DNA from: a phage
Length of the DNA: 64,000 bases
Reading direction: 5' to 3' (one strand)
Assembly: GCA_028130375.1 (NCBI GenBank)
Contig: GCA_028130375.1_3658.1
Of this stretch, positions 5,538 through 62,381 are shown one piece after another. Below the pieces are notes generated by a model that was given only the letters and a program-made list of their open reading frames with translations, made no database searches and was not told where the DNA came from. The translations under genes were made by a program, and so were the position numbers. Position 1 is the stretch's first letter; each line of letters starts with the position of its first letter.

Positions 5538-6122
5538 ATGAAAATACTTCAAGAGTTTAAACTTTACCAACCGGGATCTGGCGAATACCACTCCAACAAG
5601 GAAACCAAGGAGCTGACCCCTCAAGAGGTCGAGGATTACACCGCATACACTGGGTATTTTTTACGTAATGATGATGGTGATTGGTATGTGCAGTCACGAA
5701 CATTACGACAAGAAAATCCAGGTTGTATCTTCCTACTTGTTGACGAGAAGGGAATTCTTAAGACATCTACAGAAGAACCTGATGCCTTATGGCCTGCTCC
5801 AGGTCTTCGTGTGGTTATCGCCAAAAAAGAAGAGGTACCAGAAAACATTATGCTTCACCACGACGCTTTGCGTTTAGTTGGTGATGAATTTGTCACAGAC
5901 AATGAATTCTTTGTTCAACAGGCAGAGGGTGTCATAGAGACAGAACTTGCTTGGGCTACTGCTAGAATTGGTGCCTATCAAGACATGATTGACCTTGAAT
6001 ATGATCTTACTGATGACCAGAAACGTAACATCAGAGATTTGAAAATGTACAGGGTAAAACTTCTTGAAATAGATACATCTAAAGCCCCTGACATTTTCTT
6101 CCCGGAGCGACCTACCCTCTAA
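5538..6122 (+). CDS. Tail fibre assembly chaperone (Tfa family)
   Basis: 194 aa; C-terminus RNIRDLKMYRVKLLEIDTSKAPDIFFPERP matches the characteristic Tfa motif (YR..L..vD.S.APDI.WP..P) of lambda Tfa / Mu U / P2 G. Confidence 0.7.
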   Translation: MKILQEFKLYQPGSGEYHSNKETKELTPQEVEDYTAYTGYFLRNDDGDWYVQSRTLRQENPGCIFLLVDEKGILKTSTEEPDALWPAPGLRVVIAKKEEVPENIMLHHDALRLVGDEFVTDNEFFVQQAEGVIETELAWATARIGAYQDMIDLEYDLTDDQKRNIRDLKMYRVKLLEIDTSKAPDIFFPERPTL

Positions 6123-59217: not shown

Positions 59218-59637
59218 ATGAACATTAAATCTAATAATCCGGCATATAGCTTTGATAACGCTTTTTGTCACGGTCCGGCGGCGAAAGGATTCGAAATCGA
59301 TGGTAAACTAATTATTGTCAATGTTGACGGGGAAGAGGTTGCAGTATATCCGGTGGCAGACGTAAAAAGTCGTTTACAATGCCGCATGGATGTTACCGCC
59401 TACCAGCTTGATCCGGTCCGCATAGTTGCCCTGGTCCTGGAAGGAGAAATTAAAGCCATGCACCATAGCAACAGGTTTATTGGTGACGCTCAGGATAATA
59501 TGAAAGTATGCCGCCATAAAGTTAATGAAGTGCTTAAAGAGTACGGCTATAAAGATCTTATGATCAAACGTGAGGAAAAATTCCGCTACCGTAACGACCT
59601 GGCAAATCGGATTTTTGAAATATACGAATCATTATAA
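59218..59637 (+). CDS. Hypothetical protein (last gene of cluster)
   Basis: 139 aa; promoter TTGACA-17-TATATT at about 59141-59169; terminator hairpin aaggggcttaggcccctt + T-run at 59655-59680. Confidence 0.5.
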   Translation: MNIKSNNPAYSFDNAFCHGPAAKGFEIDGKLIIVNVDGEEVAVYPVADVKSRLQCRMDVTAYQLDPVRIVALVLEGEIKAMHHSNRFIGDAQDNMKVCRHKVNEVLKEYGYKDLMIKREEKFRYRNDLANRIFEIYESL

Positions 59638-60298
59638 TTTTTAACTGAATTATCAAGGGGCTTAGGCCCCTTTCTTTTTGTCTGCTCTTCCCCCCTACCA
59701 TAAACGGCCCTACCTGGCAAGTGGAATAATTGACGAGCCATCAATCCCACACACTGTACAAATATACATGTAAAATAGCTATTGCATAACCTTTCATTGT
59801 GTGGTAGCGGTGCTATTTTTTACCCGTTTTCCTTCCAAAATTGCACGTAATGCAGTTATTGCACAAAATTTAACCTGATGCACATCTTCAATATCTTGTC
59901 AACAACTAAAAATCTTTATAAGTCATACACTTACACAAACCAAAGAGCGTGTTCTACGTGAAAAATCGAGTATAACTATAGCCGCCAGATCTCAGAATTT
60001 ACGTACGCTCGCCATTCTATAGCCTGCTAAGCATTTATTCCAACCATAGAATAACGGAATAGTCAATACCTGCATAAAATAATTATTCGTGTAAACTGCA
60101 TAACATAAATCAGCTTAGGTGTCAACATTTTTCGTAAACAGTCTGAAATTATCACGGTGAGTTATCATAAACAGAGAAATCTTTAGTCGTCTAATGTTTA
60201 CTGTACGTTACTATACTAACTGAAATCATTAGATGACTAATAGAAAGATAAGAAATAATTAACAATACAATTATTTTATCTGTAACAATAAGGCAACT

Positions 60299-60530
60299 AT
60301 GCAAACGAATGGCATGGCGCGACGGAGTCGCGACATAATATAAAAGCAGTAACCATCACCCCCGTGATAGTTTGTCTGCAAACTATTAATCAGATCATAG
60401 TTGCCTTGTATTTAGTTAATCATGACATAACAAGCAAGGCAACTATAGATCTTCTAATAGTTGCCCTGCTTTTATATTATGTCATAGATTATTAACTTGC
60501 TAATAGTTATCATGCAAACGAATGGCATGG
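60299..60530. repeat. Nested inverted/direct repeat block (GGCAACTAT arms; 20-bp direct repeat atgcaaacgaatggcatggc)
   Basis: ggcaactat at about 60292 and 60437 with reverse complement atagttgcc at about 60399 and 60458; exact 20-bp direct repeat at 60299-60318 and 60511-60530. Confidence 0.6.
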
Positions 60531-60533
60531 CTT

Positions 60534-60608
60534 ATCATTTCCATGTAAACTGTCAAGGTGTAAACTATCCAGGCGTAAACAGTCTATGCGGGAACAATCT
60601 ATACGTGA
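60534..60608. repeat. Iteron-like tandem array (5 copies, period about 15 bp, core GTAAAC-W-GTC)
   Basis: gtaaactgtcaagg / gtaaactatccagg / gtaaacagtctatg / gaacaatctatacg / gtgaacagtgaaac; further GTAAACAG copies near 60100, 60136, 60907, 61676. Confidence 0.6.
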
Positions 60609-61254
60609 ACAGTGAAACATGAAATAATAACAGTCGTTATTGTTCCATATTGTGTCATAGTATGTCACCATTATGTCTAAAGTGTCTAAGGTGTCAGACA
60701 AGTTTTTCTCCTCTTTGTCAAGTGCTGCATGAAAAATTTACAATCTTGTATGGTAGCATTTTTGCGGCCATGTTTACATTCAGCGATGTATGTATAAGCC
60801 TTGTTGTGTGGGCGTTTAGACGTCTAGACGGTTGGAAGTCCACAGGTCAATATCTAATCTATCGGCTGCTAACTATATCCCACACAAATAGTAATAAATA
60901 TAATTGTTATATGCGTAAACAGTAACTCATGTTATCAATCCCTGTATGTATCGCCAGTGGTGCGCATAATGGGTATTATGTTAAATTGCCCGTAATGATA
61001 ACAGTTCTCACAATGATAGGTATTCTCATTCATCCACACAAAATAGGTTGCAAATGTTGTGCCACTGTGTGAACGGCCTGGCCTATTAATTTCTCTCACT
61101 GCCTCGATATTTGAGAATTGTTATAAGAATGAGAAGTATTCCCATTCCGTCCGCCTGGCAGCGCTCCTGTAGGTCCTGCAAGGACTCTAGCTGAAAGCTA
61201 GACCCTTCGGGCCTCCCTGTAGGTCAGGTCAAAATCGTGGCAGAACTGAGCCTG

Positions 61255-61470
61255 TTCAGATATTTCTGGCTGACTCTTCAGGTCTGTGTGGGAAAAGCCA
61301 ACCTCTCCGGCGGGGCAGGGGGAGGTCAATTAAAAAATTTACGTGGTGTATGAAGCGCTCTTCAGGTAAGGCAGGTATTATGGGATGAAACCCTCTTCAG
61401 GCAATGATATTTGTGGGTGTGATATTTGCTGGAAAGCCAGATATGACGGGACTCCCGGCGGGGCAGGGGT
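61255..61470. repeat. GC-rich direct repeats (CTCTTCAGG several copies; cYccggcggggcagggg x2)
   Basis: ctcttcagg at about 61275, 61349, 61393 (again near 61805); ccggcggggcagggg at 61307-61321 and 61455-61469. Confidence 0.55.
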
Positions 61471-62165
61471 AGTACAGACAGGGAAAATATGAGAATGTAG
61501 TTGGGGAAATTGATCAGACAGGTAGAGTATGGAATATGTTACAAGTATGTTAAATATGGAGGTTGAATATCTGTAGGATTTGTGTGTAAAATCAAAGACT
61601 TAAGGGGTGTTGTGGTATTTTCTATAAATAATTCAAGTTTAATAGGCAATATTTGTCTCTATCCGCTTTGTGTGGTAAACAGATTCAGATTAGATTGGTT
61701 TACAAGTGTATACATAATATACAAATTAAAGATACAAGAAACCCCCCTCCCCCCTTCGGCTACCATTCACCTTTTCCTCTGACTGGTACTTAAACACTTA
61801 TTCAGACTCTTCAGGTTATCACCCATATATCATATGGCAGTGACTGGTGTCCTCCGGCCCCTCTTTCGTCACCCGTCCGCTTCGCCATGCTAATGCCATA
61901 GCTAATGGTTCGGTTGTTCACCCTGTTCACTCAGGTGTATCTCTATACCCCTTCAAACCGAAGAGAACAGAAAACCCGAATTACTCGGTAAAAGAAAAGA
62001 GAAGAACTTAATTTTATCAGGATAGGCAAGAATGTCAAGGCATGACTGCTCACTAAACAAGCAAACAGTCATGTGTGGGAGGTAAGTGATTGTGGTGGTA
62101 GGAAATTTAGTTGAAAGATGTGTTATAGGTGCTTCCAGCACTTTAGCCGGGCAGCTAATTGTGTG

Positions 62166-62381
62166 TCAGTCCAGCGGTTCATCCTCTACTTCACTGAAAT
62201 CAATGTTCATGGTCTCTTCCCAACCATCGATCTCAGCACAAGAGTGGAGTTCTTTAGGGTTTACTCCCAAAGCCTCAGCAACAGAGTCTATATTTAACAC
62301 CTCTGGCAGGTATGATTCATCGAATTCAAGGTAAATCAGGCCACGAGTGTTGTCAGCTCCACCAAATATCTCTATCTTCAT
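62166..62381 (-). CDS. Hypothetical acidic small protein
   Basis: 71-aa ORF on - strand. Confidence 0.4.
   Translation of the reverse strand: MKIEIFGGADNTRGLIYLEFDESYLPEVLNIDSVAEALGVNPKELHSCAEIDGWEETMNIDFSEVEDEPLD

Follow-up and report, generated by a model that had tools for sequence, protein, structure and literature searches.

The DNA analysed here, referred to as the window, is a 64,000-nucleotide stretch of a phage genome. It contains a stretch of about 2.5 kb that has no credible open reading frames and that holds a short tandem array. The stretch is bounded by the last gene on the plus strand (59218-59637), which is the counterpart of rV5 ORF164, and by the first gene on the minus strand (62166-62381). 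The two flanking gene clusters converge on this non-coding region. The 2.6 kb around the array matched 122 phage records at 90-99% identity, and nearly all of these were Escherichia Vequintavirus. By sequence, the window comes from an rV5-like Vequintavirus, a phage of E. coli. Vequintaviruses are rV5-like myoviruses with genomes of ~137 kb. On the published map of rV5, the 2.5-kb stretch that holds the array is drawn as a grey box with the label 'non-coding'. The rV5 authors did not find the bidirectional terminator that they had expected in this box, and their search for the replication origin by skew analysis did not reveal one (PMC3606486).

The whole window had no match in Rfam at gathering thresholds, the only match in the non-coding region was at chance level (E = 0.38), and no tRNAs were found. 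These results rule out a known RNA family as the identity of the array. None of the nine neighbouring proteins had a Pfam domain above threshold, and PHROGs assigned the two proteins nearest the array to families without known function. Two sets of database labels came up in the comparison. Nineteen GenBank records (MG0656xx) carry the label 'Campylobacter phage' and share 92-96% identity with this region of the E. coli vequintavirus; at least one of the set is flagged UNVERIFIED (A135). The host labels of these records are probably wrong. Likewise, an E. coli 'plasmid' in PLSDB (CP057073.1; 137,565 bp) matches the array region and is vequintavirus-sized. It is presumably a phage genome, present as a carrier state or as contamination, that was filed as a plasmid.

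The array had been noticed in a first-pass annotation as five head-to-tail 15-bp repeats at 60534-60608. Both a reading of the sequence and Tandem Repeats Finder, which called 60544-60584 and 60578-60613 with a period of 15, bear out the five repeats, but the bounds shift, and the array proper extends from 60545 to 60619 (Table 1). A genome-wide count of the motif confirmed that its local enrichment is real. GTAAACWGTC occurs three times in the window where 0.33 are expected, each time inside the non-coding region, and four of the five copies of GTAAACAG in the window are found there. The looser form GTRAACWRT has 10 copies in the window, six of which lie in the 2.5-kb non-coding region, all on the plus strand (binomial P = 7e-7). 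A similar count was made in a 137-kb composite genome, which consists of the window and the remainder of rV5. Six of its 16 copies lie in the non-coding region (P = 3e-7), and the array is the sole cluster of at least three loose cores within 80 bp. Single copies of the motif had been listed nearby as well. Those at 60134, 60915 and 61675 are exact GTAAACAG on the plus strand. The copy placed at about 60100 turned out to be GTAAACTG at 60091, and the one at about 60167 is ATAAACAG, which is not conserved in relatives.

Table 1. Coordinates of the features in and around the non-coding region. Positions are those of the window; a dot marks features without strand.
Feature	Position	Strand	Remarks
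Lone motif copy GTAAACAGTC	60134-60143	+	GTAAAC unchanged in 22/22 genomes
AT-rich stretch	60180-60290	.	GC 0.24-0.30; 91-99% conserved
Second copy of the 20-nt anchor ATGCAAACGAATGGCATGGC	60512-60531	+	first copy at 60299-60318
Array of five head-to-tail 15-bp units	60545-60619	+	core GTRAAYWRT(C); from sequence reading and Tandem Repeats Finder
Array unit 1, GTAAACTGTCaaggt	60545	+	
Array unit 2, GTAAACTATCcaggc	60560	+	
Array unit 3, GTAAACAGTCtatgc	60575	+	
Array unit 4, GGGAACAATCtatac	60590	+	
Array unit 5, GTGAACAGTGaaaca	60605	+	
Degenerate sixth array unit	60620-60634	+	
Five RTGTCW repeats	60652-60696	+	spacing 9-11 bp; starts at 60652, 60662, 60673, 60682 and 60691
459-bp direct terminal repeat (physical genome ends)	60697-61155	.	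placed by homology to EdH4 and Gotham
Promoter-like element TTGTCA-18 nt-TACAAT	60715-60744	+	18 nt inside the left end of the terminal repeat; reads inward
Lone motif copy GTAAACAGT	60915-60923	+	inside the terminal repeat; GTAAAC unchanged in 22/22 genomes
Two copies of CCTGTAGGTC, 50 bp apart	61166-61225	+	just outside the right boundary of the terminal repeat
Copies of CTCTTCAGG	61274, 61358, 61393, 61807, 62455	+	
Lone motif copy GTAAACAG	61675-61682	+	right of the terminal repeat; GTAAAC in 15/22 genomes

Beyond this phage group, the repeats were searched for in several collections. A scan of IMG/VR for three phased cores returned only the same vequintavirus contig, and the other matches were unrelated coding or satellite repeats. 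E. coli genomes contained no match to the array repeats, and the one match among plasmids was CP057073.1, a 137.5-kb vequintavirus genome. In other words, the array does not belong to a plasmid iteron family and has no satellite mimic. Two candidate explanations for the sequence were rejected. The 15-bp period is not a coding repeat of five residues, because the 16-bp units and the variable copy number of relatives break the reading frame. A hairpin at 60621-60646, between the array and the RTGTCW repeats, had a folding energy no better than that of shuffled sequences (z = -1.3).

Several GenBank records of the genus begin or end inside the non-coding region, and the published virion ends of EdH4, HdK5 and Gotham are direct terminal repeats of 458/459 bp. 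The first and last 459 bp are identical within each of the EdH4 and Gotham records. When the 40-mers at their boundaries were compared with the window at 60697-60736 and 61116-61155, EdH4 matched exactly and Gotham had one mismatch. By homology, the direct terminal repeat of this phage would span 60697-61155, and the DNA would be cut at 60696|60697 on the left and at 61155|61156 on the right, with the vertical bar marking the cut. The array is located 78-152 bp outside the left boundary. The gap between the two is filled by the RTGTCW repeats, for which Tandem Repeats Finder reported periods of 10 and 9. Since the last of these repeats ends exactly at the cut (GTGTCA|GACAAG), the repeats reiterate the cut-site motif.

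The boundary sequences themselves are conserved. The left boundary reads RTGTCA|GACAAG in all 22 genomes compared, and the right boundary, read as the reverse complement, is GCTGCCA|GGCGGAC in 20 of the 22. The bases just outside the two boundaries are related in inverted orientation, with TGTCA|G on the left and TGCCA|G, as the reverse complement, on the right. The comparison extends to the Klebsiella phage KPP-1 (genus Mydovirus), in which PhageTerm identified a 514-bp terminal repeat (116,316-116,829) that was called T7-type (PMC9862379). The KPP-1 boundaries, at 2016|2017 and 2530|2531 of the compared segment, align at homologous positions. They read GGTGCTA|GACGGAC and, as the reverse complement, ATTGCTA|AACACAA, so that both are TGCTA|R. 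Across these sequences, the outer motif at both boundaries is TGYYA|R and co-varies by genus, that is, between Vequintavirus and the Mydovirus KPP-1. The inverted outer motif may be a nick-site motif of the terminase, and two symmetric terminase nicks would leave such a TGYYA|R pair behind.

The non-coding region was aligned across 22 genomes and was found to be 79-99% identical to the window except in two hypervariable patches. Both patches are located directly outside the terminal repeat. The first (60550-60699) has an identity of 32-56% and many gaps. The second (61175-61224) is a 50-bp gain or loss between the copies of CCTGTAGGTC, and these 50 bp are missing in ~45% of relatives. In 21 relatives, the terminal repeat measures 457-460 bp, and the distance between conserved anchors spanning the array region ranges from 348 to 700 bp. 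Where the array is present, it consists of 2 to 11 units at a spacing of 15-16 bp. Its start lies exactly 13 nt past the second anchor copy in 21 of the 22 genomes. The exception is phage V18, in which the array is absent (0 units) and the TGTC repeats and the cut site are kept. The V18 record may represent a deletion variant or a misassembly.

The units differ in how their positions are conserved. Among 74 distinct units, the information content is 1.0-1.6 bits at core positions 1, 2, 4, 5, 6, 8 and 9, as compared to 0.04-0.4 bits at spacer positions 10-15. The 74 units were chosen on the core, but the strictly 15-bp-phased units of the window itself give the same contrast between core and spacer. 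At the isolated copy at 60915, position 7 varies, which is within the degeneracy of the motif itself. KPP-1 has no GTAAAC array and has one GTAAACTGTC ~170 bp outside the homologous boundary. Two divergent relatives from IMG/VR, L003 and L005, have tandem repeats with a period of 11-12 bp in the homologous part of their non-coding regions. The repeat sequences differ from that of the array (GTATGCCTA in L003 and CATAGTGTRCA in L005). In L003, GAAACTATC and GGAAACAGTC motifs are kept ~120-170 bp upstream of the boundary of the terminal repeat, where the boundaries in L003 and L005 are guesses based on partial similarity.

Two other elements were observed in the comparison. Within the 213-bp block between the anchor copies (60319-60531) there are a perfect inverted repeat of 18 bp (60332 / 60466) and AAGGCAACTAT, which is present four times and alternates in orientation. 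Phage FV3 is without this block and has a single anchor copy, so the block is either dispensable or was deleted between direct repeats. Inside the terminal repeat, ~40 bp from the right boundary, a GATATTTGAGAAT stretch (61108-61120) is kept in L003 and L005 and is found as GATATTTTG in KPP-1. Apart from this stretch, the terminal repeat is not alignable with L003.

What does the array do? The first-pass annotation had described it as a binding array, specifically as iterons for a replication initiator or as sites for a phage regulator. The general part of this description holds: the array looks like a set of sites for a sequence-specific DNA-binding protein, because the core is conserved and the spacers are free, phase and orientation are fixed, and isolated copies with an unchanged GTAAAC are found in all 22 genomes. 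The initiator part fares less well. The tandem repeats in one orientation agree with it, but their spacing, their copy number, their position beside the virion end and the lack of DnaA boxes and of an initiator gene in the window do not, and it is not the best-supported reading. The array is more likely to be part of a DNA-packaging or end-cutting signal than a set of origin iterons. The favoured model, which may well be correct but is still tentative, is that the array is a recognition array for the terminase or for end processing in a phage whose short direct terminal repeats are of the T7 type.

In the replicated concatemers, the order of elements would be the anchor, the GTAAAC array, the five RTGTCW repeats, a cut, the 459-bp terminal repeat and a second cut. 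We infer that a phage protein binds the reiterated GTRAAYWRT sites and thereby serves packaging, and the likeliest candidate would be a putative small terminase subunit or an accessory end-processing factor. Its binding would position a nuclease on the adjacent RTGTCW repeats. The top strand would be cut after TGTCA at 60696|60697, and the bottom strand after TGCCA, the related motif in inverted orientation, at 61155|61156. DNA synthesis would subsequently duplicate the terminal repeat, in the way assumed for T7 and T3. Support for such a role in packaging comes from the short distance between the array and the boundary and from the continuation of the array into repeats of the cut-site motif. 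It also comes from the restriction of hypervariability to two patches outside the boundaries while the length of the terminal repeat is constant, and from the core/spacer contrast in the 74 units and in the phased units of the window. The inverted relation of the motifs outside the two boundaries, and their co-variation by genus in KPP-1, point the same way. Finally, the same anatomy is present in T7, and short tandem repeats are present in L003 and L005.

The resemblance to T7 is one of arrangement. Dunn and Studier reportedly described in 1983 that short-repeat arrays of T7, called SRL and SRR, flank its 160-bp terminal repeat. In the T7 record, the 160-bp terminal repeat is followed at once by ~11 CCTAAAG heptamers at a spacing of 12-13 bp, from 175 to 332, and looser copies of CCTAAAG are found left of the right-hand repeat. 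In both phages, there is a short exact direct terminal repeat with fixed ends, which in the vequintavirus case is a conclusion from homology. Immediately internal to the terminal repeat, a 7-10 bp motif recurs in one orientation, and its spacing does not correspond to whole helical turns (12-13 bp in T7 and 15-16 bp in the array). The terminal repeat itself also contains copies of the motif, three in T7 and one for the array motif. However, there is no sequence similarity, and T7 is a podovirus whereas the array belongs to a 137-kb myovirus. In T7, both flanks carry arrays of one motif (SRL, which is tight, and SRR, which is looser), but the array here has no counterpart on the other flank. 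To the right of the terminal repeat, there are a single motif copy at 61675 and the unrelated repeats CCTGTAGGTC and CTCTTCAGG. Unlike T7, this phage has a second repeat, with a 10-bp period and built of the cut-site motif, between the array and the cut. The function of SRL and SRR is not firmly established.

Other packaging sites offer further parallels. The pacB site of T3 and T7, which is required for packaging, is on the same side of the terminal repeat as the array: it belongs to the right end of the genome and, in the concatemer junction, immediately precedes the repeat. Terminase sites built of repeats beside the cut are known from lambda cosB (R1-R3), the pac hexamers of P1, and pacL and pacR of SPP1. 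Like the array, these sites consist of short motifs that are reiterated within ~150 bp of the cleavage site, on one or both sides. Unlike this phage, lambda, P1 and SPP1 have cos ends or package by the headful mechanism and do not have short direct terminal repeats. Binding of the small terminase has been demonstrated for the cosB and pac sites, and the array would be a putative counterpart without sequence relation. In sum of its features, the array looks like T7 SRL/SRR or a site of the cosB/pac type, and it lacks the both-flank arrangement of SRL/SRR and several features of iterons.

Several observations argue against the packaging model. The copy number of 2 to 11 indicates a loose constraint, and the lack of the array in V18 means that it is not strictly essential, unless the V18 record is misassembled. 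KPP-1 has the same terminal-repeat boundary and no array, and the sequence to the right of the terminal repeat likewise has no comparable array. The isolated copies (60134, 60915 and 61675) are up to 560 bp from either cut, which fits poorly with a role in cut positioning only. Furthermore, a period of 15-16 bp places successive sites on opposite faces of the helix. A search for the small terminase subunit in this phage group did not identify one: the genes upstream of the large-subunit gene in rV5, ORF66 and ORF67, were ruled out as candidates because they encode spanins. One recent report inferred headful packaging for a vequintavirus. A broader and rather speculative proposal is that the array and the reiterated cut motif constitute a modular, fast-diverging determinant of packaging specificity in large myoviruses with T7-type repeats, perhaps doubling as a start for late rolling-circle replication, for which ICP1 gives a precedent of the kind suggested. 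The hypervariability of the flanks would then reflect selection, for example against cross-packaging or satellite hijacking, and not mere slippage.

Could the array be a replication origin? According to this explanation, which appears unlikely, a phage or host initiator binds the units as iterons and opens the AT-rich stretch at 60180-60290, and the site could serve as a late rolling-circle origin coupled to packaging. The array does consist of tandem repeats in the same orientation with a conserved core. Known iteron origins such as P1 oriR, F oriS, pSC101, R6K gamma and lambda ori likewise have tandem direct repeats in one orientation and an AT-rich region nearby. The AT-richness that had been claimed for 60180-60290 is real, with a GC content of 0.24 at 60200-60299 as compared to ~0.44 for the window. 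The stretch is conserved and contains a 22-nt imperfect inverted repeat (60183-60204 / 60219-60240). It is possibly an unwinding element, if an origin is present. However, it is 250-350 bp upstream of the array, and the 213-bp dispensable block, absent in FV3, lies in between.

The organization of the repeats also differs from that of iterons. Classical iterons are spaced ~21-22 bp apart, near whole helical turns, whereas the period of 15-16 bp in the array corresponds to ~1.5 helical turns. The copy number is not fixed and ranges from 0 to 11 among near-identical genomes, and the array abuts the virion end and merges into repeats of the cut-site motif. DnaA boxes beside iterons are common, although not universal. 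The non-coding region of the window has no cluster of them; no strict DnaA box was found there, and there is one relaxed box at 61583. L003 offers a point in favour of an origin, because three perfect DnaA boxes (TGTGGATAA) are present within 40 bp of its non-coding region (5845-5884). No Rep or O-like initiator was detected next to the region, either among the nine neighbours by Pfam or for the two nearest by PHROGs, and similar repeats were absent from plasmids and E. coli genomes apart from the vequintavirus record CP057073.1. Replisomes of the T7 type start from transcripts and not from iterons. The rV5 paper names no initiator, and the proteins it lists are limited to a polymerase of the PolA type, a primase-helicase resembling T7 gp4 and a PIF1 helicase (PMC3606486).

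An origin at this location would be in keeping with the unsuccessful search for one by the rV5 authors and with findings in phage ICP1. The terminus of ICP1 is located in a 1.3-kb ORF-free gap between gp1 and gp2, and a late rolling-circle origin lies beside this terminus. PhageTerm peaks were observed at 431 (+) and 891 (-), which are 460 bp apart, and the phage was called headful (pac) (PMC7145576). The ICP1 DNA polymerase is among the closest homologues of the rV5 polymerase (PMC3606486). ICP1 resembles the phage studied here in being a large myovirus with its terminus in a long ORF-free gap, and the distance between its peaks is close to the 459 bp of the terminal repeat. Unlike this phage, it was called a headful packager, and no clear sequence homology was established between the two. 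No tandem array was found in the ICP1 gap (record 1-1600). Instead of packaging by the headful mechanism, ICP1 may carry a short direct terminal repeat.

Another explanation, which seems improbable, is that the units are operators of a phage transcription regulator that controls promoter-like elements, either the plus-strand element at 60715-60744 or the minus-strand elements of the TGACA type at 60639-60697. The region contains 16 promoter-like sites where 9.4 are expected, several of them within 100-170 bp of the array, and the scattered copies at 60134, 60915 and 61675 would suit a regulator with multiple sites. The TTGTCA...TTTACAA sequence of the element at 60715-60744 is conserved as far as KPP-1, in which both the -35 hexamer and the TTTACAA stretch are found. 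However, the final base of its -10 hexamer can be T, A or G, and such variability is unusual in sigma-70 promoters. Since the gene clusters on either side converge on the region, neither promoter candidate is followed by a gene in its own orientation. Direct repeats at a spacing of 15-16 bp and in variable number are atypical operators, and no DNA-binding domain was found in the nine neighbouring proteins.

It is equally doubtful that the array is a tolerated minisatellite without a sequence-specific function of its own, generated by replication slippage or imprecise end repair near a recombination-prone end. The array does occupy a hypervariable patch, of which there are just two, each immediately beyond a boundary of the terminal repeat. 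Its copy number varies between 0 and 11 with loss in V18, and on the other flank the patch simply reflects 50 bp gained or lost between direct repeats. However, spacers differ within one array while the core is kept, which indicates that the units are not recent copies of whole units. The phase of the array is fixed at 13 nt past the anchor, GTAAAC is invariant at 60134 and 60915 in 22 of 22 genomes, and the related motifs GAAACTATC and GGAAACAGTC are found at the same relative place in the divergent L003.

The terminal repeats of the genus have already been published, and a description of the adjoining array and the reiterated cut motif was not found in the literature searched. Vequintaviruses are often isolated from many sources and are components of cocktails for therapy and biocontrol. 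The array beside the physical genome end provides a testable candidate for a cis-acting packaging signal within the 'non-coding' box, together with a likely cut-site motif, TGYYA|R, that is inverted at both boundaries. If this proves true, it would help in genome engineering and rebooting, in the assessment of transduction risk, and in the orientation and annotation of the deposited genomes, which number more than 100 and mostly start at an arbitrary position. The array also shows that T7 is not alone in having repeat arrays beside its terminal repeat, since a large myovirus unrelated to it has one as well. A link between packaging and late replication is possible.

Additional elements were noticed in and near the same non-coding region. 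The strongest sigma-70-like site of the region is on the minus strand at 62011-62038 (TTGACA-16 nt-TAAAAT, extended TG, 11/12 matches). It reads leftward into non-coding DNA, is conserved in most relatives, and is followed by a terminator-like hairpin at 61988-61976. The site and the hairpin may mark a small transcript. An 18-nt repeat, CCGGCGGGGCAGGGG(G/T)AG, is present at 61307-61324 and 61455-61472 and contains the KOPS consensus GGGCAGGG. An 87-aa neighbour is labelled 'DNA translocase FtsK' in some records; a connection with the KOPS-like GGGCAGGG repeats was rejected because Pfam detected no FtsK domain in the protein and the excess of the motif is weak, with 10 copies of GGGNAGGG in the window where 5 are expected. 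A more abundant repeat is CTCTTCAGG, with six copies in the window where 0.43 are expected, five of them on the plus strand and just right of the terminal repeat. It is often followed by GTGTGGG within 3-25 nt and recurs in L003 and KPP-1. Elsewhere in the composite genome, CTCTTCAGG corresponds to in-frame Pro-Glu-Glu codons.
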